Part shown: positions 22,907 through 59,857 of the stretch, in pieces
Layout: each line of letters begins with the position of its first letter
How positions within the stretch are numbered: position 1 is the stretch's first letter
Assembly (NCBI GenBank): GCA_964402415.1
Contig: CAYOCI010000006.1
Coordinates: 16,020 to 80,019 of the forward strand
Length of the DNA: 64,000 nucleotides
Direction of reading: 5' to 3'
From: an uncultured Clostridia bacterium
GTDB taxonomy: Bacteria; Bacillota; JAAYKD01; CAYOCI01
Notes under the pieces: model-generated
Databases searched by the model: none
Told to the model about the DNA's origin: nothing
Seen by the model: the letters and a program-made list of their open reading frames with translations, nothing else
Position numbers and translations under genes: made by a program

Positions 22907-23020
22907 ACCATTCTCTCCTTCCAGATTTGATACACTCCTTGGACGTTGCTTCCAGCCATAGAGTTCGCCAAAATTGGCAGGGTTTGGGGGTATAGTGCAA
23001 AAAGGACAGGCAAAATTTGA

Positions 23021-23057
23021 AAAAAAACCGGGGGCACCGTATTGGTGCCCCCGGTCG
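23021..23057 (-). terminator. Rho-independent terminator for the LUD-domain gene
   Basis: On the minus strand: 'ccgggggcacc aatac ggtgcccccgg' followed by tttttttt. Confidence 0.75.
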
Positions 23058-23072
23058 ATCGATTCTCCTTGA

Positions 23073-39596: not shown

Positions 39597-40034
39597 TTAC
39601 TGAAAGAGTCTGATACCAGTCTTGCGTGCTAGCGCGTCCCATGCGCTCCAGTCCAGATCCATCACCTCGAGCCAGAAGACGAGATAGACCAGGGGCAAGG
39701 CGATCAGGGCGTTGATCCAGAGATAGGAGGCAAAGAGAATCGTGCTGAGAAGGAAGACGATCCCGCCGATGGCCCCCGCCTTCGCCCAGTAGCCCCTGTG
39801 CATCAGCAGCACCCAGAAGCAAGTCTGAGCACCAGCGAACAGGAGCAGGGAGAAGACCTGCAACCATAGCGGTGAGGAGCTGACGATCGATCTAAGCCAA
39901 GGGAAAAGAGCGCTATCGCCCAGCCCCTTCACCATCTCAGGGGCAGAGATCGCCAGGTACAGGTTGACGAAGCTCGTGAATATGAAGAGGAGACCATAGA
40001 ACGTCTTGATGCCGTTTCCTAACGTGCGGCTCAT
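39597..40034 (-). CDS. Hypothetical integral membrane protein
   Basis: 145 aa with four TM helices. AGAGGTGA RBS 6 nt before the ATG. Confidence 0.5.
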   Translation of the reverse strand: MSRTLGNGIKTFYGLLFIFTSFVNLYLAISAPEMVKGLGDSALFPWLRSIVSSSPLWLQVFSLLLFAGAQTCFWVLLMHRGYWAKAGAIGGIVFLLSTILFASYLWINALIALPLVYLVFWLEVMDLDWSAWDALARKTGIRLFQ

Positions 40035-41847: not shown

Positions 41848-41862
41848 CAGGAGGGCATACAT

Positions 41863-43917: not shown

Positions 43918-43923
43918 CGGGCA

Positions 43924-46503: not shown

Positions 46504-46517
46504 GGGGGTACGGCAGC

Positions 46518-48254
46518 ATGGCGAGAATGATTCCTTCAACTATATCCCCTGCCGTAAAAAGCAACGCAGAACGAAGGATCTTCGAGTGGTTTCGTGATGA
46601 CCCGCTGACCGTAGACTGGGTTGTACTACATTCATTGGGGATTACAAACCATAACAGAGTCATCCATGGAGAGATCGACTTTGTCGTCTTGGCGCCCAAC
46701 CTCGGTCTGTTTGCGCTGGAGGTGAAGGGTGGCCGGGTGAAGCAAGAGAGCGGAGTATGGCATTTTACCGACAAACACGGGGCATCAGGCAGAAAGGTGC
46801 GAGGTCCGTTCGACCAGGCATGGGACGGAGTGTTCAGCATCGTTGCATCGCTTGTCGACAAACTGGATGCGTCGCATCGGTACATGGCCGAGATGTTGTA
46901 CGGGATCGGTGTTATGTTTCCGGATATCACATACACCGCCATTAGCGTGGACGAGGAACAATGGCAGGTCTTCGACTGCAATGACGGCAGAAAAGTAGGC
47001 GCGTTTGTTCAGAGAGTTGCCGCTGGCACCAGACGGAAGTGGGAAGAACGCTACGGCCCCTTGAGAAGTTCAAAGCTGCCGTCCACTAGAGATGTCGAGT
47101 ATATCGCATCTCTCCTACGTGGGGATTTTGACAAGGCAGTTGCGGTCAGTGTTCAGCTCCGCAATGCGGAAGAGGAGCTCGTCGAACTAACAAAAGAGCA
47201 GTATAGGTGCCTTGACCAGATTGATGATAACCCCAGATGTGTGATCCAAGGCGCGGCGGGAACCGGTAAGACGCTTCTCGCTATTGAAGAAACAAAGAAG
47301 GCTGCAGCTGCTGGTGAGAAGGTGGCACTGTTCTGCTTCAATGCTAACCTCGGAGAGTGGCTCAGAAGCCACTTCTCCAAGATGTCTTACAGCTTGCGAC
47401 CTGCCTATGTAGGGACATTTCACAGGTATATGGCACAGATGACTCTTCGCGGGAGCGCTAATCTCAGGCAGCCATGTGACGAAGATATCCAGCGGTTCTA
47501 CACTGAGGATCTGCCGGAGGCTGCAAGTGTTGCATTGCAGCACGGGTCAGACAAGTATGACAAGATCATCATTGATGAGGCACAAGACCTGATCAAACCG
47601 CAGTATCTAGATGTCATGGACTTATCACTAAAGAAGGGCTTCTACCGGGGAAAGTGGACCATGTATGGCGACTTTTCCATGCAGGCGATATACTCTGGTG
47701 ATAGGAATGGCGATGAACTTAAGGAAATTCTTGAGCACCGAACGGCATTCATCTGGTTCAAACTGACGATGAACTGCCGCAACACCAAGCCAATATGTGA
47801 GGAGATTGAGACGGTTACAGGGTTCCATCCGCCGTCTAGCGTATGGGTAAAGACTGATGGCCCACCGGTTAACTACCTTACTTACTCCTCTCAAGCAGAG
47901 CAGAGGACAAAACTGCAAGAGTTGCTTACATCGCTGATGAGCAATGGCATCGATAAGCGGAAGATCACTATTTTATCGCCAGTGAGGCGTGAGAATTCCG
48001 TTGTCTCTCAGATTGACGACTTTGATATTCGCGATTTCCAGGTCAGTTCACTTGACGATATCACCTTCTCTACCATTCAAGCATACAAGGGGCTTGAGAA
48101 CACCGTGATAATACTTACAGATATCGACTCATTTCAGTCGGATAAGCTTATGTATGTTGCACTGAGTCGAGCAAGAGTTGGGCTGAACGTTCTGACATCA
48201 GACTCTGCACACAGTGAGTATCTTGAACTCCAGCGGAGGAGGTTTATGCCGTGA
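46518..48254 (+). CDS. NERD-domain nuclease fused to a UvrD/AAA_30-like P-loop ATPase
   Basis: NERD pattern 'GEIDFVVLAPNLGLFALEVKGG' at the N-terminus. Walker A 'GAAGTGKTLLA', Walker B 'KIIIDEAQDL', UvrD-C-like 'FSTIQAYKGLENTVIIL'. Its stop overlaps the next gene's GTG (GTGA). Confidence 0.7.
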   Translation: MARMIPSTISPAVKSNAERRIFEWFRDDPLTVDWVVLHSLGITNHNRVIHGEIDFVVLAPNLGLFALEVKGGRVKQESGVWHFTDKHGASGRKVRGPFDQAWDGVFSIVASLVDKLDASHRYMAEMLYGIGVMFPDITYTAISVDEEQWQVFDCNDGRKVGAFVQRVAAGTRRKWEERYGPLRSSKLPSTRDVEYIASLLRGDFDKAVAVSVQLRNAEEELVELTKEQYRCLDQIDDNPRCVIQGAAGTGKTLLAIEETKKAAAAGEKVALFCFNANLGEWLRSHFSKMSYSLRPAYVGTFHRYMAQMTLRGSANLRQPCDEDIQRFYTEDLPEAASVALQHGSDKYDKIIIDEAQDLIKPQYLDVMDLSLKKGFYRGKWTMYGDFSMQAIYSGDRNGDELKEILEHRTAFIWFKLTMNCRNTKPICEEIETVTGFHPPSSVWVKTDGPPVNYLTYSSQAEQRTKLQELLTSLMSNGIDKRKITILSPVRRENSVVSQIDDFDIRDFQVSSLDDITFSTIQAYKGLENTVIILTDIDSFQSDKLMYVALSRARVGLNVLTSDSAHSEYLELQRRRFMP

Positions 48255-50944
48255 CTGACAACCGAAGAGAGCAGCTACTTGATATCATAAAAAGAGAGTT
48301 TATTGGCCCAGACCCCGTAGACATCCCAGGCATGATTCAGGAAAACGGTGAAGAAATTCTGTCTTCGGATCCTCCCCGCGTTCGCTATGCTGCCGGTATT
48401 CTCTTTCCGCAATGCGCTTTGCCGGAAACGGTTGATCCGGTGGCGGATGAAGGGACCCCTGGTGCAGAGGTTGATGACGCCGAAGTGGCTGAAGGGGCCA
48501 CCCCCCATGGCGAGTCTTCAGGCGATAACTACGAGTATCTTGAAGATGCGGAAGAGCTCATCAATCTTTCCAATGCTTATCGTCAGTCTGCCATAAGCCT
48601 TACCGTGGCACTAAAGGATGAAGATGATCTGACTGCACTCGTGACGGCCGGTTCTTATACAATGATCAACGTTACAGATCCCATTACGGGAAAACAGTCC
48701 ACCCGGTATCCCCGGGCAGGCATATCGTGGAATAACGACGGAATGCCGCTGAGAATGCCTAGTGTGAATTCCCGTATTGTGAAAACCGAGATTAAGGGTA
48801 CCTACCTTCGGTTTGACATTACCTACCGTTATCGTCAGAGTGGTTATTCCATCTATACATTTACATTAGAGAATACGAAGATCAACAGCACCGATTCAGT
48901 TCGTGACGAGGAATGCTATTTTCAAGCGGCATTTCAGCTTGTATCTTCAAAAGGCTTCAGCCCCCTGCCTGGCAGTCAGCGTATCAACACGGATGACGAG
49001 GACTACTGGTCTAATCAGCTTCTATACAGAAATGTAGAGAATTACGCCATTGGTCACGGCTGTGCGGCTGACTGGGAGGGGGTGGAAGGTCGGATATCTA
49101 GTGTTAGGACATCAGTATTCCCGTCCTATGAAGTCAAGCCGATTGTGCCAAGCGTAATCCCTGGGGTATCTCTTGACATGTTCAAGATGAGCGATCTAGG
49201 TGACTTTTCCGAAACAATAGGCGAACTGGAGAAGCTCTGTACAGCATACAGGGGTTGGATAGATGGGCTCAAGGCTGCAACCATCAGTATTGCTGATAAC
49301 TATAAGGACACCGCCAACAGGCATATTGCTAATTGTGAAGCTTGCCTTGAGCGTATGTGTGATGGTGTTGAACTACTAAAGAGTGATGACAAAACAAAGC
49401 TGGCGTTCCAGTACATGAACCGAGCAATGCTGCTGCAGCAGCTCCACTATAACCTCCCGCTGCAGAATTGGGGTGTTGATGATAACGGCGGCATAAAACT
49501 GGAGAACCCGGTAACGCAACTGCCGATTATCTCCGATCTGTCAACGTGGCATGGCGATAGGACGAGGTATGGGAGATGGAGGCCCTTTCAGCTTGCGTTT
49601 ATTCTCATTAACCTGAGGTCAATGGCAGATAAGCAATGCAACGACCGCAGGAAAGTCGATCTGATATGGTTTCCGACCGGTGGCGGCAAGACCGAGGCAT
49701 ATCTGGGCCTGTCGGCTTACACGATCTTCATTCGTAGACTATACAACAGGGATGACGCCGGAACCACGATTCTTATGCGATATACACTGCGCCTATTGAC
49801 TGCACAGCAGTATGAGCGAGCTTCCGCCATGATCTGCGCCTGTGATCTGATTAGAAAAGAGCACTCCGCTAGTCTGGGAGATACTCGCATAACCATAGGT
49901 CTTTGGGTTGGAGGCGACACTACGCCAAACAGTACGAGCGATGCAGTCAAGGCATACGACAAGCTATATTCTGGTAGAAGTGATGTAAACCCCTTCGTGA
50001 TGCTAAAATGTCCGTGGTGTGGTGCCCAGATGGGTAGGGTTATAAAGCGAGATAACTCGTTCGAAACACCTGGATATAAGAAGATTGGTGGACGCAAAGC
50101 CCGCGTGGTATTCCAGTGCGCAAACTCTGAACATGGGTGCGAATTCTCTGTGAGTGGCAATGAACTGCCGCTGTACGTTGTTGATGATGACATCTATGCT
50201 AATACGCCCACACTGCTGCTTGGTACCGTGGATAAGTTCGCTATGCTCCCGTTTAGGCCACAGGCACAGGCAATTTTTGGGATGTACGATGGGCAGAGAC
50301 TTTCATCTCCAGACTTGATAATCCAGGATGAGCTCCACCTGATTTCCGGCCCATTGGGTTCCATGGTCGGTCATTATGAAACTCTCATTCATGAGCTCTG
50401 TACACAGAGGACAAGCTCCGGGGTAATCCAGCCGAAAATAATAGCATCCACTGCAACCATTAGCCGCGCAAAGGAACAGTGCCATGCCCTCTATGCCTGC
50501 GGCACCGATAGTGTTTTCCAGTTCCCACCTTCAGGTCTAGATGCTGGAGATTCGTTTTTTGCAGTTGAAAATACGAGTGGTACTGGCAGGCAGTACGTCG
50601 GAATCCTCGCTTCTGGCGCTTCCTCAGACGCAACGACAGCAATCCGGCTGTTTGCTTCTCTGCTCTACGGTGCTAAGGCCATTAATGTGGCGTCGGAGGA
50701 ACTTCGAGATCCCTATTGGACCAATATCGGCTACTTCAATAGTATCCGTGAGTTAGGACAAGCCGCCACATGGATTCGTGCAGATATCGACGAATATCTT
50801 CATGTCATATATAAGCGTAAGTATGAGGACAAACAAGAGGGCTATAGGCAGAACCGCAGATATATGTGGGACGACGAAGAACTCCCGAGCGGTGTTCGGA
50901 GCTATAAGATCCCATTCCGCCTACAGAAGCTCGGTATCTGGTAA
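48251..50944 (+). CDS. DExH-box SF2 helicase, DrmA-like (N-terminal part with motifs I–III), ending at an in-frame TAA
   Basis: Motif I 'FPTGGGKTEAYLGL', motif II 'IIQDELHLISGPLGS', motif III 'ASTATISRA'. About 400-aa N-terminal domain of unknown function. The reading frame continues after the TAA at 50942–44. Confidence 0.7.
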   Translation: MTDNRREQLLDIIKREFIGPDPVDIPGMIQENGEEILSSDPPRVRYAAGILFPQCALPETVDPVADEGTPGAEVDDAEVAEGATPHGESSGDNYEYLEDAEELINLSNAYRQSAISLTVALKDEDDLTALVTAGSYTMINVTDPITGKQSTRYPRAGISWNNDGMPLRMPSVNSRIVKTEIKGTYLRFDITYRYRQSGYSIYTFTLENTKINSTDSVRDEECYFQAAFQLVSSKGFSPLPGSQRINTDDEDYWSNQLLYRNVENYAIGHGCAADWEGVEGRISSVRTSVFPSYEVKPIVPSVIPGVSLDMFKMSDLGDFSETIGELEKLCTAYRGWIDGLKAATISIADNYKDTANRHIANCEACLERMCDGVELLKSDDKTKLAFQYMNRAMLLQQLHYNLPLQNWGVDDNGGIKLENPVTQLPIISDLSTWHGDRTRYGRWRPFQLAFILINLRSMADKQCNDRRKVDLIWFPTGGGKTEAYLGLSAYTIFIRRLYNRDDAGTTILMRYTLRLLTAQQYERASAMICACDLIRKEHSASLGDTRITIGLWVGGDTTPNSTSDAVKAYDKLYSGRSDVNPFVMLKCPWCGAQMGRVIKRDNSFETPGYKKIGGRKARVVFQCANSEHGCEFSVSGNELPLYVVDDDIYANTPTLLLGTVDKFAMLPFRPQAQAIFGMYDGQRLSSPDLIIQDELHLISGPLGSMVGHYETLIHELCTQRTSSGVIQPKIIASTATISRAKEQCHALYACGTDSVFQFPPSGLDAGDSFFAVENTSGTGRQYVGILASGASSDATTAIRLFASLLYGAKAINVASEELRDPYWTNIGYFNSIRELGQAATWIRADIDEYLHVIYKRKYEDKQEGYRQNRRYMWDDEELPSGVRSYKIPFRLQKLGIW

Positions 50945-50995
50945 CCCTCTGCGGCGGGTGAAAAGCGACCGGTAGACATCTGCCTTGCCACAAAC

Positions 50996-51640
50996 ATGAT
51001 CTCTGTTGGGGTTGATGTGCCGCGGCTTGGCCTCATGACTGTATCAGGCCAGCCTAAAATGACATCCGAGTATATCCAGGCGACGAGTCGTGTCGGCCGC
51101 GACAGTGCGTCTCCTGGTTTAGTGTTTGTGTTGTATCGCCCTGGACGACCTCGAGATAAATCCCATTATGAGCAGTTCAGGTCTTACCATTCTAGAATGT
51201 ACTGCAATGTTGAGCCGACTAGCGTAACGCCATTTTCTGCACCGTTGCGAGAAAGGGCTCTACATGCGATCATGATTGGCATAATGAGACTTGAGGGAGA
51301 TAAGGCCTTCAATGCTGATCCACCTCGTCTTCCAGATAATCATACTCTTGAGTGTGTGTACAGTGTTATTCGTAAGCGTGTAGAAGCTGTCGATAGTAAT
51401 GAACTGGAAGCAATGCTCAACCGAATGGATGAGGTGTTGCGGGACTGGGAGGATTGGGGCCCTCAGAAATTTCAGGATTTCACTGCGATGGATGCTGTAC
51501 CGCTCATGTTTCCTTCCGGAACTATGAGAAATGAGGCGTGGGGTAACCGGGGACTATCCACACCGACATCCATGAGAAGCGTAGATTCCTCGTGTGAGGC
51601 ATACGTGCTGGAAAACAGATATTGGTCGGAGGATGTTTAA
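50996..51640 (+). CDS. Helicase C-terminal fragment (motifs V–VI), same frame as 48251..50944
   Basis: The in-frame sequence just upstream of the first ATG reads '…PVDICLATNMISVGVDVPRL' (motif V), and 'QATSRVGRDSASPGLVFV' is motif VI. Together with the upstream ORF this makes one helicase of about 1,130 aa. Confidence 0.65.
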   Translation: MISVGVDVPRLGLMTVSGQPKMTSEYIQATSRVGRDSASPGLVFVLYRPGRPRDKSHYEQFRSYHSRMYCNVEPTSVTPFSAPLRERALHAIMIGIMRLEGDKAFNADPPRLPDNHTLECVYSVIRKRVEAVDSNELEAMLNRMDEVLRDWEDWGPQKFQDFTAMDAVPLMFPSGTMRNEAWGNRGLSTPTSMRSVDSSCEAYVLENRYWSEDV

Positions 51641-51641
51641 G

Positions 51642-53483
51642 ATGGCGTTCTCAAAAAAGCCTATGCGTCGCAGCCAGCTAATCAGTCCATGGGGCGTTGG
51701 TGCAATTGTACCGTTTCCTGACGATGAATCTCTCATGATTGCCGGACTTGATATGTGGCGATACAACTCAACTGATGGGTTCCTCATAAAAGATGAACGC
51801 CTGCAAAGGCGTCTTGGTGTAAAGGAGTTGCGCTGGCCACCGGATTTTAGAGATCAAAAAACCGATGCCAGGAATTACAATCTGAAAATTCCTGCGGTTA
51901 AGTTTCCGAGGTGGCACTACTGCCCTTTCTGCGGGACCATGCAGAAGCTAACATATTACACTAACGCTGCTTACTGCGATGGGTACCCTTGGCCGCACGG
52001 TCGTTCCTGTGCTTCCAAGAAGAAGTTCGGACGCAGGCTGATTCCTGAAAGATTCGTTGTCGTTTGCCCCGATGGACATATCGATGACTTCCCAGTCGCA
52101 GAATGGTTACACCAAGACGGTGAGCATTCATACGATCCAAGTAAATGCCATATCCGCAGAAGTACCGGTGGCACCTCAGCATCACTAACGGGTGTGTTCT
52201 ACGAATGCTCCTGCGGAGCAAAACGGTCCATAGCCGGAGCAACAAGACCCGGAGCTTTGAAGAAGATAGGGTATCGGTGCAGAGGTGCTAGGCCTTGGCT
52301 TGGCGTGGAGAAAGACGACGACAGCCCATGCGATCGTGATGACGTCAAGGTTCTTCAGCGTGGTGCCACAAATGTGTGGTTCGCCGACACCAGAAGTTCA
52401 ATTCATATCCCGACAGACGATGAATCACCCAGCCGCCGCATCGTTGGTATACTTGATCAGTTTCTTGACCCCCTGAGAAGTCACCGCATAAACGGTGAAC
52501 TGAATCGCGATTTCATAAGGATGCTCGCAGAAGCCAATTTCGTCAATGCCGATGATCTATATGCAGCTGCTGTAAAGAGACTAGTAAATATCGAATGCCT
52601 GCCAGAGATAACCGAGGACATGTCGGAGGACGACTACCGCTTAGCCGAATACAAGGTTCTTATCAAGAGCAGCGGCGGCGATACTCTTGACTTTCACTCG
52701 ATCAACTACCCCATTTCTGTATATGATCCCGTGCTTCATAAGTATTTCAGGAGCATATCTTTAGTACCTAAACTCAGGGAGACACGCGCATTTGTGGGGT
52801 TTTCGCGTCTTGAGCCCAGTATTATGGACATATCTCAAAGAAAGAGAATGTTGCGGTTAGGCAACGGGGGGTGGCTCCCAGCCATCGAAGTGTATGGTGA
52901 AGGCATCTTCTTTGAGTTCAATGCCGATATGCTTAAGCAGTTCGCAGAGAGAACAGGGGTTCAGGACCGGAGTGAAAAGCTTGATAGAGCGTATCATGCA
53001 TCGAGTTTCGGGAAACATGCTTCCGGTAGACTCAGACCAGAGTTTGTGCTAATACACACGTTTTCCCACCTGCTAATAAATCAGCTTGGCTTTGAGTGTG
53101 GCTACGGCAGCTCATCCATTAGGGAACGTATTTACTGCGAAAAGACCAGCAATGACCACGAGATGTATGGGCTACTCCTTTATACAGCCTCTGGTGATTC
53201 TGAAGGTTCGCTGGGCGGTCTTGTTCGGCAGGGTGAAAAAGGCCGTATTGAGGACACCATCATGTCCGCGCTGAAGAACGCCGCATGGTGCTCGTCCGAC
53301 CCTATCTGTATTCAGTCTAAGGGCCAAGGCCCCGAGTCTTGTAATCTATCTGCTTGTCATAACTGTGCCCTTCTGCCCGAAACCTGTTGCGAGTGCGGGA
53401 ATCGTCTACTAGATAGAGGGGTTGTGGTTGGCACTCTTGCCGAACCAGAACTTGCGTTCTTTGACAATGCTAGGATACAGTGA
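51642..53483 (+). CDS. DUF1998-domain protein (DrmB/MrfA-C-terminal-like zinc-ribbon)
   Basis: GGAGGATG-type RBS before the ATG at 51642. Several Cys clusters ('HYCPFCG', 'CSCG') and a C-terminal 'WCSSDPICIQS…CNLSACHNCALLPETCCECGN' typical of the DUF1998 four-Cys module. Confidence 0.65.
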   Translation: MAFSKKPMRRSQLISPWGVGAIVPFPDDESLMIAGLDMWRYNSTDGFLIKDERLQRRLGVKELRWPPDFRDQKTDARNYNLKIPAVKFPRWHYCPFCGTMQKLTYYTNAAYCDGYPWPHGRSCASKKKFGRRLIPERFVVVCPDGHIDDFPVAEWLHQDGEHSYDPSKCHIRRSTGGTSASLTGVFYECSCGAKRSIAGATRPGALKKIGYRCRGARPWLGVEKDDDSPCDRDDVKVLQRGATNVWFADTRSSIHIPTDDESPSRRIVGILDQFLDPLRSHRINGELNRDFIRMLAEANFVNADDLYAAAVKRLVNIECLPEITEDMSEDDYRLAEYKVLIKSSGGDTLDFHSINYPISVYDPVLHKYFRSISLVPKLRETRAFVGFSRLEPSIMDISQRKRMLRLGNGGWLPAIEVYGEGIFFEFNADMLKQFAERTGVQDRSEKLDRAYHASSFGKHASGRLRPEFVLIHTFSHLLINQLGFECGYGSSSIRERIYCEKTSNDHEMYGLLLYTASGDSEGSLGGLVRQGEKGRIEDTIMSALKNAAWCSSDPICIQSKGQGPESCNLSACHNCALLPETCCECGNRLLDRGVVVGTLAEPELAFFDNARIQ

Positions 53484-53491
53484 GGTGTACC

Positions 53492-54520
53492 ATGTATGTT
53501 ATTCTGTCTCAAAAGGTGGATACGGACTCCATTTACTCCGATGATCTTTTCAACACTTATCACTATCCAGCACGATATAAGAACCAGTTACACACTGGGG
53601 ATATTTTCATCTACTACCAAGGAAACCGGTATAAGAGTGAACACCGGTACTATTTCGGTGTCGGTACCGTTGGAGAGATCCTCACGACTGACGGTGAGAG
53701 CTACTATGCCAGACTGCTTCGGTGTCGACGCTTCGAAAATCAGGTCCCCATTTATGTCCCCGATGGCGGCTATGTGGAACAGAGAGGTTATGAAAGCGTT
53801 CGGCGGAGCCTAAACCCGCCATGGCAGACTTCGATTCGTCCTTTATCCAAGGATGCATACGATTATATCATCGAGAAGGCAGGAATATTGATCAGTACCA
53901 ACCCAGATCAAGAAATCGACGTGATGAAGAACGCTCTGAAGAGGTCTCTTAAGGAGTTCTACCTAGGTGGTAATCAGAAGGCAATTCTATCCGTTGTTAG
54001 CATTGCCCAGCAAATTGCTGATACTCTGCAACTTGGAGCAGTTGCTGTGTGCGAGGATACAGTCACAGCGTTTAGCGCAGCTCAAACACCCGATCCGACA
54101 CAGCAGAAGACCAAAACCATGTTCTTCGACTACTGCAGAAGCATGAGAATGTCATATTCCTATAAGCCAGTGCTCATACTGGCAGTTCTAGATTGCGGAG
54201 TAGAGAAAGGGCAAGTTTCTATTGAAAGAGCTGCTTGCTACTTCAGAGATTACTATACCGAGCGCCGTAAGAACGGGCTGAAAATAGAGAAGGGCAACTG
54301 CATCTATCAACGTGGTGACGTAGATATGCAGCCGATAGCTGGCAACATCGTGGCGAATCCAGTAAAGGCGCTTATCGCTAGCGGGTACTTTGAACATGAT
54401 AGGACTGCCGGATTGTTCGGTTTCGCTCCTCGACTATGGGCGGAGCTTTCGCGTGATGATCTGTCTCACATCAGAGGCGTGTGCGTAGCGAAGCTGGAGA
54501 ACTACTATTCATCGAAGTGA
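53492..54520 (+). CDS. Hypothetical protein, possibly with a PUA/EVE-like N-terminal domain
   Basis: GAGGTG RBS 6 nt before the ATG at 53492, 9 bp after the DUF1998 gene. N-terminal beta-rich aromatic segment 'YVILSQKV…YHYPARYKNQLHTGDIFIYYQGNRY…YYFGVGTVGEI'. Second domain 'YSYKPVLILAVLDCG'. Confidence 0.5.
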   Translation: MYVILSQKVDTDSIYSDDLFNTYHYPARYKNQLHTGDIFIYYQGNRYKSEHRYYFGVGTVGEILTTDGESYYARLLRCRRFENQVPIYVPDGGYVEQRGYESVRRSLNPPWQTSIRPLSKDAYDYIIEKAGILISTNPDQEIDVMKNALKRSLKEFYLGGNQKAILSVVSIAQQIADTLQLGAVAVCEDTVTAFSAAQTPDPTQQKTKTMFFDYCRSMRMSYSYKPVLILAVLDCGVEKGQVSIERAACYFRDYYTERRKNGLKIEKGNCIYQRGDVDMQPIAGNIVANPVKALIASGYFEHDRTAGLFGFAPRLWAELSRDDLSHIRGVCVAKLENYYSSK

Positions 54521-54723
54521 CTTGACACTGCGCCTTGGAGGCTACTACGGTGGCGTTGAGTTTTCAGAGCTAATGCGCCTAGATATGGTTAGCAAAGTGC
54601 TTCCTTCAATGTTATGCTGGAGTAGCATAGCCTGAGATTCGCTAGGAGTATGGCTGCAACAACCACGACACAAAGGGGAGTCTTGCCATCTATACTGACG
54701 ATCTTCACCACCGCACTGCGCTC

Positions 54724-55095
54724 TTGGATCCCAAGTCCTTTTTCTGCGGGTCCGACGAATCCTACTACTTCGCTCTCGGCCAGCTCCTGGTCCACGTCTT
54801 CAACCTCATGGGTGGGGTAGACCGTTACCGCAAGGAGTTTAACTACCTGACCAATCCGAGCTTGGCCTACCCCGTGCAGAAACTGAACTCACGGATCGTG
54901 CACTTTCTCCGGCGCGCTCGTGAGCGCTACGAGCTGGGCCCGGACGCTGAGCAGCTTCTTGACGCTGTGCTTTCCTATCAGCCAGGGCATCAGGACGAGC
55001 CCCGGCATATCGAGAGCTTGGACGACGCTTTCTACTCTGGGATCCATGCCGATAGCACCCTCGGCGGGAGGACTTCATCCGACTGTCGGGCCTAG
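54724..55095 (+). CDS. Hypothetical protein, uncertain gene (TTG start, no clear RBS)
   Basis: 123-aa ORF at the right edge of the low-GC island. An alternative short ATG ORF at about 54649 overlaps it. Confidence 0.25.
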   Translation: MDPKSFFCGSDESYYFALGQLLVHVFNLMGGVDRYRKEFNYLTNPSLAYPVQKLNSRIVHFLRRARERYELGPDAEQLLDAVLSYQPGHQDEPRHIESLDDAFYSGIHADSTLGGRTSSDCRA

Positions 55096-55213
55096 CCCCG
55101 TCCAGATAGTCCCAGAAGACTAGGACCTGAGTACGATGCCCTGTTCCACCCAGTTGTGCTAGAATCCCCGTAGAGAAAACGCTGCCACTTGCGCTCATCG
55201 GGGAGGGGTAGAG

Positions 55214-55522
55214 GTGGATAACGTCTATCAAACCATCGGCGACAAGACGCTGATCTTTACGATCTACAGGGGTGCACCCCGAGCCGCGCTTATCGACAGT
55301 GAAGACCTCGGGGCGGTGGCATCGGTCGATGGCAAGTGGAAGATCGGCCAAGACAATCGCTTCTTCCTGGCGGAGCGTAGCGGAGTGGAGCAACAGGTCA
55401 TTTACATGCACGATATCATCATCGGTGCCCTCGCGCCTGGGAATAGGACCCGGCGGGTGGCGCACATCAATGGTGACGGCGCAGACAACCGGAAGGGAAA
55501 CCTGATGTTTCTTAAGGACTGA
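55214..55522 (+). CDS. HNH endonuclease (HNH_3/AP2-associated type)
   Basis: 'VIYMHDIIIGALAPGNRTRRVAHINGDGADNRKGNLMFL' carries the H…N…H(I)NG(D)…DNR…NL motif. Ends 9 bp before the terminator hairpin that begins repeat copy 1. Confidence 0.65.
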   Translation: MDNVYQTIGDKTLIFTIYRGAPRAALIDSEDLGAVASVDGKWKIGQDNRFFLAERSGVEQQVIYMHDIIIGALAPGNRTRRVAHINGDGADNRKGNLMFLKD

Positions 55523-55715
55523 CAAAGACAAGGACGGTGTCCGCGTGGCGGACACCGTCCTTGTTCGTACATTGCTAATCCCTGCCCATACCCCTAGCCA
55601 GCTAGTCAGTAGGAACTGCAACCGCGCGATCAGCATCGAGCAGCGGCTCATGACAGCGTTACCGAAAGAAGCGCCGAAGCCGATCATCATGACCCAGCGG
55701 CCTGCCTTGGTGATG
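55522..55715. repeat. Direct-repeat copy 1: terminator hairpin plus about 150 bp duplicating the 3' end of gene 59252..59857
   Basis: Hairpin 'ggacggtgtccgc-gtgg-cggacaccgtcc' (55532–55560), then 'ttgttcgtac…gtaggaactgca…gagcagcggctcatgac…gatcatcatgacccagcggcctgccttggtga'. Matches 59198–59395 at about 85–90%. Confidence 0.8.
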
Positions 55716-55960
55716 ATCGCACGGCGCCATTGCGCGCAGGCACTCCCTTGTTGTTTCGGCAGCATCCACGGGATAGTCTCCAATCGTCCCACGACGGGCC
55801 AGCATCTCCGACCCTCCCTGGTTTCTAATACAGGCGGCAGAGTCATGCCTTCATCCTGGCGGTGATATCGCGTAGGACCCGCATGACGGCTTCGAGCTCA
55901 TCGAGTGCGTTCACACTCACTGCAACCTAGACAATGGCTTGTGATTGCAGAGCAGAGGCT

Positions 55961-56743
55961 TTACCCGATAAACTGTGCCAACTCTTGGTTGAATCTGTCG
56001 CGCTCATCATAGAACAATCCGTGGCCGCTGTTTTCAAACGGGACGAGTCTTGAGTTCGCAATTCCTCTGTTCTGTGCTTCAGCCAAAGGGAAGTGACAAA
56101 CCTGATCGTGGATGCCGTGGAGAATCAGTGTGGGCACATGTATTTCCCCGAGATCTGAAAACAGGCCTTCTTCGTCTAGCCAGGTATTTGCCACTGCAGC
56201 AGTGGACCAGCCTGCTGCCTGCAATCCCAATTGAAAGAACCAATCTGAGAATGGCTCAGTCACATGTTGGTAGAAGAAGATATCCCCGAATCCTTGCAGC
56301 ATTTTGGGGCGATCGTTATATGTGTCTTGGATGATCTTGATGATGTCGTCTCGTGTTAATCCATAGGGGAAATATGGACGCTGGATAAGGCTGGGGGCTG
56401 CAGCTGCAAAAAGAGCTAGCTTTGATACCCCATATCCATTATGGCGTGCCATATAGCGAATGGCGACTCCTCCACCAGTAGAATGGCCTCCGAGCGTGAA
56501 GTCGTCCAATTGGAGCGCTTCAACCACACACCGAATATCGTCTGCCAGTCGATCATAGGTGTAGCCACTCCAGGGCTTATCCGAGTTACCAAATCCCCTC
56601 ATATCCATACCAATGCATCGATAACCCATCTTAGGGAGCTGGTTAAACTGGTATTCAAACATCTTGTGGTTGGCTGGCCAACCGTGGACAAACAGGATTG
56701 GCTTCCCACCTCCCGGGTCAACGTCCTCTACATAGATTCTCAC
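55961..56743 (-). CDS. Alpha/beta-hydrolase-fold enzyme (haloperoxidase/esterase-like)
   Basis: 'ILFVHGWPANHKMFEYQ', nucleophile elbow 'GHSTGG', C-terminal 'ILHGIHD…GHGLF'. Lies as a cassette between repeat copies 1 and 2. Confidence 0.8.
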   Translation of the reverse strand: MRIYVEDVDPGGGKPILFVHGWPANHKMFEYQFNQLPKMGYRCIGMDMRGFGNSDKPWSGYTYDRLADDIRCVVEALQLDDFTLGGHSTGGGVAIRYMARHNGYGVSKLALFAAAAPSLIQRPYFPYGLTRDDIIKIIQDTYNDRPKMLQGFGDIFFYQHVTEPFSDWFFQLGLQAAGWSTAAVANTWLDEEGLFSDLGEIHVPTLILHGIHDQVCHFPLAEAQNRGIANSRLVPFENSGHGLFYDERDRFNQELAQFIG

Positions 56744-57077
56744 ATCCGGTTCGACAGTAATATAGCGTCCTCCCGTACAACCCCCTCCGTTCGTGTCAGT
56801 TCTTCAAATAATGATATGAGGTTGGTATGGGATGTATGCTTCTGGTTCCTTAGTCTTGACACCGTGCTCCAAACTGCCTATTACCATGGTCAGTTCGCAC
56901 TAAAGCTCGCCATGCTCAGGACCTTGCGCTGATTGCGCATGACACGGGCGCGGCAATGGCAAGCACACATACGACCATCTCTCACAGAATACGAAACAAG
57001 TGCATACCACTCTGGCGCAGCTCCGGGCTGACAAAGCGGCCGAGTAGTAACGTGGTGCCTAGAGTTTCGATAGGTAA

Positions 57078-57252
57078 AGGGAAGGACGGTGTCCGCGTGG
57101 CGGACACCGTCCTTGTTCATACTTACCTAGGCTCCGTCTATACCCCCAACCAGCTAGTCAGTAGGAACTGCAGTCGAGCGATCAGCAGCGAGCAGCGGCT
57201 CATGACAGTGTTGCCGAAGCAATCGCCGAAGCCGACCATCATGACCGAGCGG
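57078..57252. repeat. Direct-repeat copy 2: the same hairpin plus gene-3'-end unit
   Basis: Hairpin at 57084–57112, then 'ttgttcatacttacctaggctccgtctatacccccaaccagctagtcagtaggaactgcag…gagcagcggctcatgacag…', closely matching copies 1 and 3. Confidence 0.8.
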
Positions 57253-57403
57253 CACAATACGGAGCCTCAGGATTCTTCGTCCCCTTACTCCCCGGCCAAG
57301 AAGGTCAAATAGCTTAGTTTGATCGACTGACTGTGTTTGCGTAGTATAAGAGTGGAGCGCCTCATTCGGTGTTCTCTGTTCCTTGAGGTCATCTTGCTTC
57401 AAT

Positions 57404-58087
57404 CTATAAGCCCTTAACAGGAGGTGCATCATGAACATCTTTGACTGATGGGCGACCATAGTTCAATGCGTTGACAGGGCAGACCTCTTGGCACTGGAAA
57501 CAGACCAGGCAATACGTCGGATCGATTCTCGCGCCTTCCGTTCTGCCGACGTTTATCGCCCCGGCAGGACATGCCGCAGTGCAAACGTTACAGGAACGAC
57601 AGCCCTGAGCTGAGATTTTGAGCTTGGCGAAACGTCCTGTGAGGCTAAACAATATGCCCCAGGGGCACAGATAACGATGCCATGCTGTCTCATTGACGAA
57701 CAGTGTCACGAGTAAACCAAGTGGGATGATGATCGCGGGCAGTGGGAACTTTCGACCTTGGGTAATGGTGTAGATGGTGTAGCCCAATCCCCCGAGAAAT
57801 AACGAAAGAACTATGCGGCGTACGAGAGTTTTGCTGATCCAGCTTGGGACGCTCTTTTTCTGGGTAGCTAGCATTCTGCCCAGCCAGTTAATGGGGCGGA
57901 TCAGAGTATTTATTGGACAAATCCACCCACAATAGAACCGCCCGAAATACGAGGCTAAAATGATGGATGCAAAAATTAGCGCCATCCAAAACTGGGCCTT
58001 GCCGATGATCATTAGAGTTAAGAAGACGGCGAACGAAAGAAGCTGAACCCCCAGGCGAGTTTTTGGATGAGCCATATGAACCTCCAT
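57404..58087 (-). CDS. 4Fe-4S ferredoxin-type membrane protein (NapH/MauN-like)
   Basis: TM helices with 'CGWICPINTL', 'CPWG' and 'CRSCNVCTAACP…CLVCFQCQEVCP' two-cluster ferredoxin motifs. Confidence 0.6.
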   Translation of the reverse strand: MEVHMAHPKTRLGVQLLSFAVFLTLMIIGKAQFWMALIFASIILASYFGRFYCGWICPINTLIRPINWLGRMLATQKKSVPSWISKTLVRRIVLSLFLGGLGYTIYTITQGRKFPLPAIIIPLGLLVTLFVNETAWHRYLCPWGILFSLTGRFAKLKISAQGCRSCNVCTAACPAGAINVGRTEGARIDPTYCLVCFQCQEVCPVNALNYGRPSVKDVHDAPPVKGL

Positions 58088-58283
58088 CTATATACCTATT
58101 CCCCCTATGGGTATATTCATTATATCATCCACAAAATAAGCCAGTCAATAGAGGCAAAATCTAACCACAAAAGTCGCGGAAGACCCGACTTTTGTGGTTA
58201 TCAAGTTTGCAGGGCGTAAGATTCATGATAGACTAGTAAATACCCTAGCTGGGTATGCGTATTAGTTTATTGGGAGGTCGTTA

Positions 58284-58889
58284 ATGGAAAAACGATTGAG
58301 GAGCTATCTCTACGTGGTGACGATATTGTTTTTTACGCTGGGGTTGTTTAATGTTCTTTTTGCCTTTCTGGGACTGATCTGTATGCTCTTGCCATTTGTA
58401 TTATTGTTCAAAGACAGAAAGAAGACATGGTGTCAGAGTTATTGCCCACGTGCTAGCCTTTTTACGAGGCTGTTCAAGGGCAGATCATTGACTGGCAGCA
58501 GAGGCCCTGACTGGTTGTTCGGTAATGGCAAGTGGATCATGGTGGTCTATTTCGGCTTCAATCTCTTCGTCATTACCATGTCCACGCTTAGGGTCGCCAG
58601 AGGTCTCGCGGCTCCTATGGAATACCTACGCTTTTTGGTAGCCTTTGTACTCCCCTGGAAACTTCCGCAGCTTCTTACCCTGGGAGCGCCAGATTGGGTG
58701 ATCCACCTAGCCTACCGAATCTACTCCATGATGTTTACTACCACCGTCTTGGGGATGGTGCTCGGTTGGCTGTTTTACCCGCGAACGTGGTGCCGTATTT
58801 GCCCAATCAGTACACTGTCGGATGCTGCACTGAAAAAGTTGGGTCAATCTACTTCCCAGGCTAAGGGGACGCACCCACAGGCCCTTTAG
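58284..58889 (+). CDS. Hypothetical membrane protein with Cys-Pro metal-binding-like motifs
   Basis: 201 aa, multi-TM, with 'CQSYCPRASL' and 'WCRICPISTL' resembling 4Fe-4S-binding-domain membrane proteins. Confidence 0.5.
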   Translation: MEKRLRSYLYVVTILFFTLGLFNVLFAFLGLICMLLPFVLLFKDRKKTWCQSYCPRASLFTRLFKGRSLTGSRGPDWLFGNGKWIMVVYFGFNLFVITMSTLRVARGLAAPMEYLRFLVAFVLPWKLPQLLTLGAPDWVIHLAYRIYSMMFTTTVLGMVLGWLFYPRTWCRICPISTLSDAALKKLGQSTSQAKGTHPQAL

Positions 58890-59118
58890 TTCATGCAATA
58901 AAGCACAGGCAATCGTTCCGTCTGGGGGTGGCGTTGGTGATCACATTGGAAGATGTCTTTAGCTGGAATGCTTGCTGGTCAGGACCTTCCCACAGCATGA
59001 GCATCGCGAGTGCTAATTGAGAATGGCTTCGGCAGTTAAGGCGATCTCAGATTAGTAGCACCTGCAAGTCACACAGTGTCATCATTGGAGCTTTCCTATT
59101 AGGACAACCTACACGCAA

Positions 59119-59395
59119 GGTGACCCATACTAACAAAGACGCAGCAGATAACCGCAGAGGGAACCTAATGCTTGCTAAAGGCGAATGAATGGAACAAGGA
59201 CGGTGTCCGCTGAGCGGACACCGTCCTTGTTCGTACTTACCTAGGCTCCGCCTATACCCCCAACCAGTTCGTTAGTAGGAACTGCAGGCGAGCGATTAAG
59301 AGTGAGCAGCGGCTCATGACGGCGTTGCCGAAGGAAGCGCCAAAGCCGATCATCATGACCCAGCGGCCTGCCTTGGTGACGATGGCGCCGGGACC
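59119..59395. repeat. Direct-repeat copy 3 (native locus): HNH 3' remnant, terminator hairpin, and the real 3' end of gene 59252..59857
   Basis: '…DNRRGNLMLAKGE*' remnant at about 59119–59188. Hairpin at 59198–59226 with loop 'tgag'. Continues as the coding 3' end of the downstream membrane-protein gene. Confidence 0.75.
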
Positions 59396-59857
59396 GGTGA
59401 GCGCTTTGGTATAGGTCCCGGTGAAGAAGAAGTAGGAGATAACCGCTAGGACACCGAGGAAGAGGATGATGTTATTCAGGGAGTTCAGCTTGACGAAGGT
59501 CGCCGAGACCTGGCTCAGGAACTGTGCCTGGACCGCACCTGCTAGACCGATACCGGCGCCAGCGGCGATCAGAAGCGCCATGGGATAGCGTGCTAACCAG
59601 CCCATATTGGGCACATAGCGGGAGTAAAGCATGAGCCCGAGGACGATGGGGATGAGGTAGATGATCTTACCCTCGAACAGAGGCTTGAGTGCCTGCTTAT
59701 CAAAGTTCTGCCAGCCGACGACGACGGCGTTGCCGGCGGCGATCCCTAAGAATGCGTTTTGGAAGAGCTGATAGACCTTGTTGTCCATTCGAAAAACGAA
59801 GCTGATCATAACCAATGTGGTGATGGCTGCAAGCCATACAACCGGAGCTGTACTCAT
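59252..59857 (-). CDS. Integral membrane protein, last gene of a four-gene membrane operon; its 3' end is the source of the repeat
   Basis: 201 aa with six TM segments. C-terminus '…KAGRWVMMIGFGASFGNAVMSRCSLLIARLQFLLTNWLGV' is re-encoded in partial form in copies 1 and 2. Confidence 0.6.
   Translation of the reverse strand: MSTAPVVWLAAITTLVMISFVFRMDNKVYQLFQNAFLGIAAGNAVVVGWQNFDKQALKPLFEGKIIYLIPIVLGLMLYSRYVPNMGWLARYPMALLIAAGAGIGLAGAVQAQFLSQVSATFVKLNSLNNIILFLGVLAVISYFFFTGTYTKALTGPGAIVTKAGRWVMMIGFGASFGNAVMSRCSLLIARLQFLLTNWLGV

Follow-up and report, generated by a model that had tools for sequence, protein, structure and literature searches.

Consecutive segments bounded by direct repeats at the 3' end of one gene are known from the CIMEs at the fda 3' end of Streptococcus thermophilus and from the composite and pseudo-SCC arrays at rlmH/orfX, which are cases of tandem accretion. 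These arrays have at least three att-like direct repeats that are short (15–30 bp) and identical, and their segments without a recombinase rely on one acting in trans or provided by a neighbouring element. In CIMEs, remnants of the parent element usually remain recognisable. Element e14 and phage 21 are thought to have gained their icd end by imprecise excision.

The H47 genomic island of E. coli is small, has extensive imperfect direct repeats and carries no recombinase of its own (PMC3191183). Excision and integration of the island proceed without homologous recombination, and the crossovers fall within several identical segments (PMC3191183). For the C-terminal displacement of rhs/cdiA, PMC5727410, citing Jackson et al. 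2009, describes a full gene followed by orphaned 3' fragments, each with a conserved piece. The fragments were left behind when a new end recombined in at the conserved part (PMC5727410).

The threefold repeat and the segments that it bounds

The locus lies in a stretch of 64,000 nucleotides from an uncultured Clostridia bacterium (the window). Its central gene, X, codes for a membrane protein and is the last of a four-gene DUF6754 membrane-protein operon (61347–62132, 60711–61334, 59871–60695, X), in which the neighbour of X was identified as DUF6754 (Pfam). The 114 homologues of X come from Bacillota, WOR-3 and Hydrothermae. The original prediction had seen a threefold direct repeat of the gene end with its hairpin, delimiting two small cassettes and adjoined on the left of copy 1 by a defence island. 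All of these features were confirmed, while the repeat coordinates were a few bases off. Alignment of the three copies, which the original prediction had proposed, placed the edges as listed, with the homology of copy 2 ending at about 57258.

40612..54520, plus strand: low-GC defence island, DISARM class-2-like; context, outside the repeat array
54724..55095, plus strand: 123-aa ORF of host-like composition, the conserved right-hand landmark; its homologue abuts the hairpin of X in relative L001 and is paired with the HNH-like gene in relative L010
55214..55522, plus strand: full HNH-like gene, 102 aa, convergent with X, hairpin 1 being common to both; GC3 0.73, host-like
55528..55727, minus strand: repeat copy 1, with an X fragment of 44 codons (55589–55720), TGG (55586–55588), spacer and hairpin 1 (55528–55566)
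55728..57079, no strand: cargo of cassette 1, an alpha/beta hydrolase (ORF 55961..56743, minus strand) with non-coding flanks
57080..57258, minus strand: repeat copy 2, with an X fragment of 37 codons (57141–57251), TAG (57138–57140), spacer and hairpin 2 (57082–57118)
57259..59020, no strand: cargo of cassette 2, two Fer4_5 membrane proteins (57404..58087, minus strand, polyferredoxin-type; 58284..58889, plus strand)
59021..59188, plus strand: HNH'3, a remnant of about 55 codons of the HNH-like 3' end, lacking a start codon and closely preceded by a stop; abuts hairpin 3
59192..59386, minus strand: repeat copy 3, with the last 44 X codons (59255–59386), TAG (59252–59254), a 19-nt spacer and hairpin 3 (59192–59232)
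59252..59857, minus strand: gene X, 201 aa, the intact target gene (ORF list)

Read in the sense of X, the order is full X, hairpin 3, HNH'3, cargo 2, X fragment (37 codons), hairpin 2, cargo 1, X fragment (44 codons), hairpin 1, full HNH-like gene, 123-aa ORF and DISARM island. The repeat search of the window returned a single family of three direct copies of 193 nt (55528–55720, 57080–57272 and 59194–59386), the second and third being 79% and 84% identical to copy 1; between-copy identity overall is 79–88%. Exactly three occurrences in the window were counted for a 17-mer and for a 25-mer taken from the repeat, against expectations of 0.36 and 0.00, a number that 0 of 100 shuffles attained for either. 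Each copy comprises the last 37–44 codons of X, the stop region and a perfect terminator hairpin, and the repeat also runs beyond the hairpin into the 3' end of the convergent HNH-like gene. Copy 3 is the genuine 3' end of the intact ORF. The stop codon of copy 1 is mutated from TAG to TGG, and copy 2 is the most decayed, with four non-conservative changes within its first 15 codons.

The 5' edges of the X fragments, at −44 and −37 codons, are 21 nt apart. The near-identical patches differ from pair to pair. For copies 1 and 3 the patch is the 5' edge, where 37 nt are identical between copy 1 (55677–55713) and the intact gene (59343–59379); for copies 2 and 3 it covers the stop, spacer and left arm; copies 1 and 2 have theirs at the hairpin, with 37 identical nt. 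This pattern resembles homologous exchange or gene conversion, by which any core would be blurred. Copies 2 and 3, which surround cassette 2, have no exact match above 19 nt; 2 of the 25 positions of the proposed core and all three of the hairpin loop are different between them.

The hairpin, GGACGGTGTCCGC-NNN-GCGGACACCGTCC, is perfect in all three copies, with stems of 17, 15 and 19 bp, DNA folding energies of −19 to −25 kcal/mol and z-scores of −8.4 to −10.8. Hairpin 3 is a perfect 20-1-20 palindrome serving as terminator. The hairpin is X's own terminator in its species group and is present in L001; it was not found in JGI metagenomes or IMG/VR.

The cassettes bring 1.3–1.8 kb of cargo per insert, in two tandem inserts. 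The hydrolase of cassette 1 has a GHSTG nucleophile elbow and a GC3 of 0.53. The two genes of cassette 2 (GC3 0.56–0.60) are divergent, with a strong sigma-70-like predicted promoter at 58119–58148 (minus strand). Cargo genes are compositionally foreign, their GC3 of 0.53–0.60 comparing with 0.73–0.77 in the operon and the X ends. The polyferredoxin has its nearest homologues at 58–64% identity, and the cassette proteins are all singletons at 90% identity among ~15 billion proteins, so that there is no sign of circulating cassettes. Comparison of the two cassettes revealed neither a common arm sequence nor terminal inverted repeats.

The neighbouring island codes for DrmMII, AIPR/MzaE, a DrmE-like protein (DrmE_C), a NERD-UvrD helicase, DrmA, DrmB and a 346-aa accessory protein. 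Its drmA gene is interrupted by an in-frame TAA.

Divergence of the gene ends and occupancy in relatives

Purifying selection has acted on the X ends, which are divergent alleles. Copies 1 and 3 are separated by 14.5 synonymous and 2.5 non-synonymous changes (omega 0.03; binomial p = 6e-7), and of the 44 residues of their C-terminal peptide all but 3 agree. Omega is 0.17 between copies 2 and 3 (binomial p = 0.003) and 0.24 between copies 1 and 2 (binomial p = 0.02). The dS among copies, 0.3–1.0, is as great as that against L001. Because the differences are overwhelmingly synonymous, the fragments were functional gene ends until recently and not products of the in-situ decay of an old duplication; the omega of 0.03 leaves no room for a plain duplication that decays in place.

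These data argue strongly that two foreign segments were inserted serially into the 3' end of X, each with a replacement for the last 30–44 codons and a terminator. As each segment supplied a new end, X would have remained intact, the previous end surviving as a dead fragment further downstream. The native end of X is probably represented by copy 1, which is contiguous with the host-like HNH-like and 123-aa genes. Segment 2 would also have brought part of the convergent HNH-like gene. HNH'3 is similar to HNH residues 66–101 (tblastn E = 1e-9, 58% identity) and to phrog_959 (E = 3.6e-4), with a nucleotide shuffle p < 0.0005, and its position is exactly that expected of a captured junction. Its contact with hairpin 3 implies that X end, hairpin and HNH end arrived together, as one complete junction, on the incoming segment. 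A similar HNH remnant at copy 2 was not significant (shuffle p = 0.15).

The original prediction expected related genomes to differ in cassette occupancy, and they do. In L001, the closest relative found, whose X protein is 89% identical, X and its hairpin abut the homologue of the 123-aa ORF and the cassettes are absent, which makes it an empty site. The genes downstream of X differ in every other relative examined, and the 3' side of X is thus a variable hotspot. No X-targeting element or further X 3' fragment was found in 92 loci with X homologues. Of the repeated site-specific integration first proposed, the serial insertion is upheld by omega, the empty site of L001, GC3 and the e14-like anatomy, whereas its site specificity is tentative, neither a recombinase domain in the ORFs scanned nor common arms having been found.

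Possible mechanisms of insertion

For the mechanism, we lean tentatively towards conservative site-specific recombination near the upstream edge of the repeat, by a tyrosine or serine recombinase not encoded in the cassettes, in preference to insertion driven by homology. The fixed crossover site would be the block GCCGCTGGGTCATGATGATCGGCTT, ~30–37 codons before the stop. A site of this kind predicts both the 21 nt between fragment edges and the 37-nt block of copies 1 and 3 at the edge; random illegitimate joins would, by our own estimate, give such close edges in roughly 7–20% of cases. The recombinase may be encoded at another place in the genome, or by a visiting element, and act in trans, or it may since have been lost. 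As they encode none, the cassettes would be non-autonomous, comparable to CIMEs or to the H47 island. The module of X end, hairpin and HNH' would probably stem from imprecise excision in an earlier host with an X–hairpin–HNH junction. In agreement with the initial remark that no integrase is visible in the window, integrase, resolvase and transposase domains were absent from the ORFs scanned (most long ORFs of the window and those in or across the cassette spacers), and a recombinase motif scan was also negative. The lack of common arms and of terminal inverted repeats counts against a lambda-type integrase with arm sites. Further points against the site-specific reading are the short exact match of copies 2 and 3, the pair-specific patches, the negative searches for an X-targeting element in the 92 loci and for the hairpin in JGI metagenomes and IMG/VR, and the singleton status of the cassette proteins.

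Homology-driven additive insertion without a dedicated recombinase is rather unlikely. In one version, a circle with an X end–hairpin (–HNH') junction integrates by a single RecA crossover of the Campbell type. The second version starts from a break in X: repair copies the X end, terminator and accessory genes of a related chromosome, and the far end is joined non-homologously. This topology is identical to that proposed for rhs/cdi C-terminal displacement; the displacement model, as given in PMC5727410, has the same full gene with orphaned 3' fragments. Two single crossovers in the homologous junction would give exactly the order of pieces present here, namely an HNH fragment beside full X, next a lone X fragment, and last an X fragment beside the full HNH-like gene. 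The homology extends to both sides of the hairpin, is allele-like and has host-like GC3, and the pair-specific patches speak for homologous exchange acting on the repeats. Two 37-nt identity blocks are of sufficient length for rare exchange by RecA. The negative result for recombinases in the scanned ORFs also fits, as does a region downstream of X that differs in every relative, as at integrase-free hotspots. However, ~190–350 nt of homology at 12–21% divergence is a very poor RecA substrate, and the ending of two independent events within 21 nt in X is left to chance. Nor was a donor genome with the predicted colinear arrangement found; the polyferredoxin homologues are distant and the cassette proteins singletons.

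It is improbable that the copies are what is left of paralogous operons, or of an old duplication in situ, after cargo replaced all but the last ~120 nt of two of them. Other lineages often have full-length paralogous DUF6754 operons in tandem or convergent arrangement (in 18 of 90 fetched loci matching X there are two or three copies of it, and L002 has a convergent pair), and paralogues under selection likewise give low dN/dS. Nevertheless, two independent replacements would be needed, each stopping 37–44 codons before the stop, and HNH'3 would be left unexplained. Moreover, L001 has a single X directly beside the 123-aa ORF, and paralogues elsewhere are far more divergent, those of L002 having 55% amino-acid identity across the same C-terminal stretch.

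A metagenome-assembly chimera, strain variants being concatenated via the shared repeat, is very improbable. The window is part of an 80,181-bp MAG contig, hairpins 1 and 2 have their 37 identical nt in common, and an independent k=31 assembly (L009, run DRR182650), 100% identical to 53261–55559, breaks off at the hairpin, exactly where the first 30-mer common to hairpins 1 and 2 ends. Such a stop also fits serial insertion, since a hairpin with two left-hand contexts among the raw reads would produce it. The junctions of cargo and X fragment, however, have no homology to anything upstream in X, and a de Bruijn graph cannot invent them, so that at least one duplication must be physically real. 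Between copies 3 and 2 the common stretch is no longer than 19 nt, and the 37-nt block of copy 3 with copy 1 is coding and not at the junction. Only a swap of copies 1 and 2 at k<38 is conceivable, which would still leave one cassette per strain.

Even less probable is homing by the HNH-like protein, which would cut X ~40 codons before the stop in naive genomes, repair then copying the linked X end and its neighbours. The HNH-mediated capture first offered as an alternative loses ground here on the protein itself, a short form of the HNH_3+AP2 family. Relatives have 155–180 aa with HNH_3 plus AP2; this protein of 102 aa ends straight after the motif NL, without the final Asn and the AP2 DNA-binding domain, its Pfam score (14.9 bits) is under the 24.8-bit cut-off, and the L010 homologue is equally short. 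An HNH_3-family ORF does abut the hairpin, with a second remnant at copy 3, the near-coincident fragment edges would suit a site-specific cut, and synonymous divergence of the linked X end could confer immunity to cutting. Yet the intact gene lies outside both cassettes and pairs with the 123-aa ORF, as it does in L010 without X, and the copy at the current gene end is a dead fragment.

Integron-like capture, also raised in the original prediction, is the least probable reading: small cassettes without mobility genes, each with a closing hairpin and all in direct orientation, and AAC...GTT triplets at the outer ends of the palindrome, recall a CALIN with the hairpin as attC, but the hairpin is the native terminator of X, present in L001, is near-identical across copies where attC sites vary in sequence, has a perfect 15–19 bp stem and 3-nt loop without extrahelical bases or internal bulges, and reads GTTCGTA or GTTCATA against the R' consensus GTTRRRY, while the repeat reaches 130–150 nt into coding sequence, cassette 2 has two divergent genes with their own predicted promoter and no IntI occurs in the scanned ORFs.

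Comparison with known systems

The locus is a known kind of arrangement in an unusual minimal form. As with e14 (and phage 21) at icd, the insert lies in the 3' end of a protein gene, a replacement end is supplied and the native end is left as a fragment on the far side; in both, the copies are imperfect, differ mostly at synonymous positions and each have a terminator hairpin. Over the last 165 nt, icd and icdC of E. coli K-12 (NC_000913) have an identity of 92.7%; 10 of the differences are synonymous and 2 non-synonymous. Behind each copy stands a related hairpin. However, e14 is a 15-kb element with its own intE and xisE, while each insert here has 1.3–1.8 kb of cargo in which no mobility gene was found. 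The present locus also has two tandem inserts, more divergent copies (79–88%) and, in one insert, a piece of a convergent gene.

Unlike in the CIME and SCC arrays, no parent element, remnant or recombinase is visible at the locus. With H47 it has in common a small recombinase-less island between long imperfect direct repeats. The organism and site are different, and the H47 repeats are not reported as a gene end with terminator (PMC3191183); mobility, demonstrated experimentally for H47, is putative for the present locus. The full-length gene followed by an array of orphaned 3' fragments is also found in rhs/cdiA (PMC5727410). There the variable part is a C-terminal toxin domain with its immunity gene, whereas here it consists of unrelated genes downstream of the terminator.

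Organization of the repeated gene end

The 3' end of gene X, which codes a 201-residue membrane protein, and the hairpin that follows it are found three times in the same orientation, as the original prediction held. The repeat search returned one family made of three direct copies of 193 nt each, and 13-, 17- and 25-nt diagnostic words are confined to these copies, which no shuffle of the window matches. X is the fourth and final gene of a membrane-protein operon that begins with a DUF6754 gene, and copy 3 is its genuine 3' end. Every copy consists of the final 37–44 codons of X, the stop codon position (TAG except in copy 1, where mutation has turned it into TGG), ~20 nt of spacer and a perfect hairpin (hp1, hp2 and hp3, respectively). 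The hairpins have a stem of 15–19 bp and a loop of 3 nt (-19 to -25 kcal/mol when folded as DNA; z = -8.4 to -10.8). The features of the locus are:

48251..50944 and 50996..51640, the two ORFs of DISARM DrmA
53480-54520, 346-residue ORF
54724..55095, + strand, 123-residue ORF
55214..55522, + strand, 102-residue HNH-like gene
55528-55720, repeat copy 1, the reference for identities (repeat search)
55961..56743, alpha/beta hydrolase gene of cassette 1
57080-57272, repeat copy 2, 79% identical to copy 1 (repeat search)
57404..58087 and 58284..58889, divergent genes of cassette 2 coding two Fer4_5/polyferredoxin membrane proteins
59021-59188, HNH'3, 55-codon remnant of the HNH-like gene
59194-59386, repeat copy 3, 84% identical to copy 1 (repeat search)
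59252..59857, - strand, gene X

Read in the sense of X, the order is full X, hp3, HNH'3, the cassette 2 cargo, an X fragment of 37 codons, hp2, the cassette 1 cargo, an X fragment of 44 codons, hp1, the full HNH-like gene, the 123-residue ORF, the 346-residue ORF and DISARM. The X end and its terminator are present as direct repeats on both sides of the inserts, and the segments between these att-like repeats have no recombinase in the scanned ORFs. In the alignments the homology of copy 2 ceases at about 57258. Cassette 2 has a strong promoter-like site (11/12 sigma-70-like match with an extended -10). No tRNA or tmRNA gene is found in the window, and Rfam gave no match at gathering thresholds, the region yielding sub-threshold noise only.

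The repeat extends further than first reported, beyond the hairpin and into the end of the convergent HNH-like gene. The full HNH-like ORF adjoins hp1 on its left, is convergent with X and stops 5 nt short of the hairpin. Its similarity to HNH_3 is weak (14.9 bits against a Pfam cut-off of 24.8; phrog_959, E=2e-4). HNH'3 lies left of hp3 in the same register, its translation ending in KSHSVIIGAFLLGQPTRKVTHTNKDAADNRRGNLMLAKGE directly before the stop where that of the full copy ends in YMHDIIIGALAPGNRTRRVAHINGDGADNRKGNLMFLKD; its identity is supported by tblastn (E=1e-9), by phrog_959 (E=3.6e-4) and by a nucleotide shuffle test (p<0.0005). One alignment hinted at a similar remnant left of hp2, which was non-significant in the shuffle test (p=0.15).

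The left neighbour of the array is a low-GC DISARM class-2-like island coding DrmMII, a DrmE-like protein, DrmA and DrmB, together with AIPR/MzaE and a NERD helicase. A single in-frame TAA (50942-50944) divides DrmA in two ORFs whose halves match identical PADLOC DrmA profiles. The TAA is due to nonsense mutation or to a sequencing error, or else the gene is naturally split; the DISARM system may be inactive. The 346-residue ORF, located between DrmB and the 123-residue ORF, has no Pfam or PADLOC match and is absent in L001, the closest relative found. Its amino-terminal 130 residues weakly match phrog_8048, annotated as HNH endonuclease (E=1.6e-4), and it may be an accessory defence gene.

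Other repeated sequences lie elsewhere in the window. An imperfect direct-repeat pair (38547-38640 and 39470-39565; ~95 nt, with a 50-nt core 86% identical, 923 nt apart) flanks one 190-residue ORF (38656..39228, - strand; no Pfam match) at the left edge of the low-GC island, with a strong hairpin (38505-38540) after the left copy. It seems non-coding (6 non-synonymous versus 2 synonymous differences in the sole open frame), has no Rfam match and may represent a further insertion scar or else a common leader/UTR element. A 30-nt direct repeat (87% identity) has one copy just upstream of the Ppnp gene (37460-37489) and the other inside the 3' end of membrane-protein ORF 39597..40034 (39625-39654); it may be due to chance or reflect a further small duplication bordering the island. 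At 34682-35080, 2–3 tandem copies of a 123-nt repeat (84–88% identical), each with a GGGAGGGTCTCAGACCCTCCC hairpin, are followed by a 23-nt C-rich microrepeat, an RtcB gene being just downstream; GC skew is strongly negative over 34–38 kb. Four 441-nt tandem repeats (20606-22588) are found within a 1046-residue ORF (19955..23092, - strand) coding a repeat-domain protein that is probably surface-located.

Evolution of the X ends and occupancy of the site in relatives

The last 37 codons of X diverge between copies mostly by synonymous changes. Under the neutral expectation that ~76% of changes are non-synonymous, binomial p values are 6e-7 (copy 1 versus 3), 0.003 (copy 2 versus 3) and 0.02 (copy 1 versus 2).

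Table. Synonymous and non-synonymous differences in the last 37 codons of X
Comparison; synonymous; non-synonymous; dS; omega
Copy 1 versus copy 3; 14.5; 2.5; about 1.0; 0.03
Copy 2 versus copy 3; 9.0; 6.0; 0.44; 0.17
Copy 1 versus copy 2; 7.0; 6.0; 0.32; 0.24

This pattern excludes an old duplication decaying in situ. Each X end evolved inside a functional X, the fragments having worked as gene ends until recently. The distance among copies is about that of each copy to the L001 orthologue, which has 87% nucleotide identity to intact copy 3 over the same 37 codons. The carboxyl-terminal peptides of the X ends are 84–93% identical; a role of the array as silent cassettes varying the X carboxyl terminus was rejected as the peptides are nearly identical. 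GC3 is 0.73–0.77 in all three X ends, 0.71–0.76 in the operon, 0.73 in the HNH-like gene and 0.76 in the 123-residue ORF, with 0.53–0.60 in the cargo genes and 0.51 in DrmB. As all three X ends are host-like, GC3 does not separate native from foreign ones.

A search of 5.8 billion protein clusters yielded few close relatives of X, and the genome-contig search with X returned two loci, the nearest genomes being Clostridia and Bacillota MAGs. In L001 (Logan SRR30200687) X is 89% identical and is followed by the same hairpin with one mismatch; 8 nt further begins a homologue of the 123-residue ORF and then a DrmB-like gene. Since the HNH gene, the cassettes and any X fragment are all absent, L001 represents the empty site. 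In L010 (Logan SRR21890359) the 123-residue ORF adjoins an HNH-like gene (67% identical, likewise 102 residues), which is followed by a different hairpin and a different gene. The DNA 3' of X differs in each of L002, L003–5, L011 and L012, which marks it as a variable spot. The hairpin after X also differs in the loci where this region is readable (L002, L003, L006, L011), and the one found here is thus the X terminator of this species group.

An X 3' fragment is found neither in these compared loci nor in a further 80 from metagenomes, whose X homologues are more distant; additional X copies in these loci belong to entire paralogous operons. The DUF6754 operon is often present in 2–3 full paralogous copies (L002/L007 57-1395; L022, L030, L048, L080 and others), which in many metagenomic loci stand in tandem ~3.5 kb apart and in Clostridia MAG GCA_964540595.1 are convergent, tail to tail. 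The DUF6754 family has no known function and is widespread in Bacillota, WOR-3 and Hydrothermae.

Searches for the origin of the array gave little. Neither JGI metagenomes nor IMG/VR contain a match to the hairpin pattern, and the cassette proteins are singletons at 90% identity among ~15 billion proteins. The search with the polyferredoxin yielded no close donor (best matches 58–64% identical), and the whole array showed only generic hydrolase similarity (64–68%) to plasmid collections and none to phage collections. Exact-sequence look-up in an assembly index found no record of the X protein, the hydrolase, the 227-residue ORF form of the polyferredoxin or the 201-residue Fer4_5 protein. L009, an independent k=31 assembly of run DRR182650, matches 53261-55559 at 100%. 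It ends exactly at the end of the first 30-mer common to hp1 and hp2, as would be the case for a hairpin with two left-hand contexts among the reads.

Proposed routes of cassette insertion

The original prediction of repeated insertion into the 3' end of one gene is supported by the copies that resemble working gene ends, the foreign cargo, the empty site in L001 and an anatomy like that of e14, the cryptic prophage in E. coli icd. The evidence supports serial insertion, the X 3' end being replaced each time. Two foreign segments would have entered the X tail, each with a substitute tail and terminator, and segment 2 would also have brought a piece of the convergent neighbour gene; X would stay intact, its earlier tail being left behind on the downstream side. 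The original tail is probably copy 1, which is contiguous with the host-like HNH-like and 123-residue genes and shares 37 nt at its 5' edge with the intact gene.

For how the segments entered, we tentatively favour, at a probability somewhat short of even, a recombinase acting in trans or since lost, the cassettes being non-autonomous as in CIMEs or the H47 island. The crossover core would be fixed, within the block GCCGCTGGGTCATGATGATCGGCTT. A fixed site-specific crossover is favoured by fragment edges only 21 nt apart (codons -44 and -37) and by an identity block right at the fragment edge, like in e14; the repeats, being short (190–350 nt) and 12–21% divergent, are moreover a poor RecA substrate. 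Against it, the cassette ends have no common arm sequences and no terminal inverted repeats. Recombinase domains are absent from the cassettes, from ORFs in or across the spacers and from the scanned ORFs that make up most long ORFs of the window, in agreement with the earlier statement that no integrase is visible. An X-site recombinase or autonomous element was likewise not seen in 92 loci with X homologues, mostly distant relatives.

Integrase-mediated insertion of the e14 type predicts one identical crossover core in all att copies. Copies 1 and 3 are identical over 37 nt at the 5' edge (55677-55713 and 59343-59379), but copy 2 has 2 mismatches in the 25 nt that overlap it, and the near-identical patch has a different place for each copy pair. 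Also against a fixed crossover, the copies on either side of cassette 2 (copies 2 and 3) have no exact match longer than 19 nt and differ in their hairpin loops. The shifting patches of the copy pairs, a further argument against it, point to gene conversion or homologous exchange between repeats. Homology-driven additive insertion is a possible, if rather unlikely, route, either by a Campbell-type single crossover of a circle or by one-ended break repair with copying from a related chromosome, as in carboxyl-terminal displacement (PMC5727410). The mosaic of shared variants conflicts with every simple two-event scheme, so that the insertion order is not reconstructable from it; the conflict is probably due to later gene conversion. 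Sliding identity to L001 gave no clear step indicating a recombination breakpoint in X.

It is improbable that the place where the X end, the terminator and the HNH end meet serves as docking site for a new cassette system with a recombinase in trans or none. Such a system would stack small promoter-bearing cassettes after a conserved gene bordering a defence island, each cassette being admitted by the spare gene end and terminator that it carries. The locus would then count as a platform for chromosomal gene capture that differs from integrons.

The other explanations carry little weight. Paralogue remnants or an old duplication are very unlikely, and an assembly chimera is slightly less probable still. 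HNH-mediated capture, which the original prediction had kept as an alternative, finds an HNH-like gene at the array, but homing by it is scarcely credible. Its relatives in an exhaustive profile search have 155–180 residues and carry HNH_3 and AP2, whereas this protein and its L010 homologue end directly past the NL of the motif, without the final Asn and without a DNA-binding domain. The intact gene lies outside both cassettes, segment 2 carrying a remnant only, and goes with the 123-residue ORF, its neighbour also in L010. Least credible is the integron-like array that the same prediction had named: attC hairpins are expected to be imperfect and variable, with R''/L''-L'/R' boxes and extrahelical bases, but the hairpin here is perfect, nearly invariant and serves as X terminator in L001; R' reads GTTCGTA or GTTCATA rather than GTTRRRY, and instead of mostly promoterless one-ORF cassettes in a single orientation, cassette 2 has two divergent genes and its own promoter. 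A dif/Xer-like site was also rejected. Note that dif sites have an 11-6-11 layout, unlike this GC-rich perfect palindrome with a centre of 1–3 nt.

Relation to known systems

The structure is real. It belongs to a known class, in which a duplicated gene end acts like an att repeat and segments accrete in tandem. As a member of this class it is unusual and minimal, with two clean cassettes of cargo, a repeat junction of three parts (gene end, terminator and the neighbour's end) and no recombinase among the scanned ORFs. The array is a single instance from a rarely sampled uncultured Bacillota lineage. Variable hotspots beside defence islands often have no visible mobility gene, and the route by which they acquire genes is a practical question. 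This locus keeps readable scars of two successive gains, namely spare ends, a shared terminator, a captured neighbour piece and an empty site in a relative. It suggests that a conserved gene can gain small clean cassettes on its downstream side and stay whole, by the trick of e14 at icd with no integrase on board. Demonstration of a recombinase in trans, or of a purely homology-driven route, would explain in concrete terms how islands grow without an integrase.

In E. coli K-12 the final 165 nt of icd are e14 DNA, while the native 165 nt persist as icdC at the other prophage end. Identity between the two ends is 92.7% (10 synonymous and 2 non-synonymous differences), and each precedes a related terminator hairpin (measured here). 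As in e14, direct repeats derived from the target-gene 3' end and terminator flank the inserts described here, and a vacant site is found in a relative (L001). In e14 and phage 21 the copies differ mainly synonymously because the element-borne end must function, and the X ends do likewise (omega 0.03–0.24). A difference is that those elements carry their integrase inside, with or without an excisionase, whereas the scanned ORFs of the cassettes hold none. In that respect the cassettes resemble the CIME, pseudo-SCC and H47-island types, which are att-bounded segments lacking a recombinase; in the H47 island recombination occurs in several identity segments (PMC3191183). The array also recalls carboxyl-terminal displacement in rhs and cdi loci, where orphaned 3' fragments, still with some conserved sequence, come after a full gene. 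There, however, the displaced ends are different carboxyl-terminal domains with immunity genes, whereas the X ends are near-identical and the cargo codes a hydrolase and polyferredoxins.
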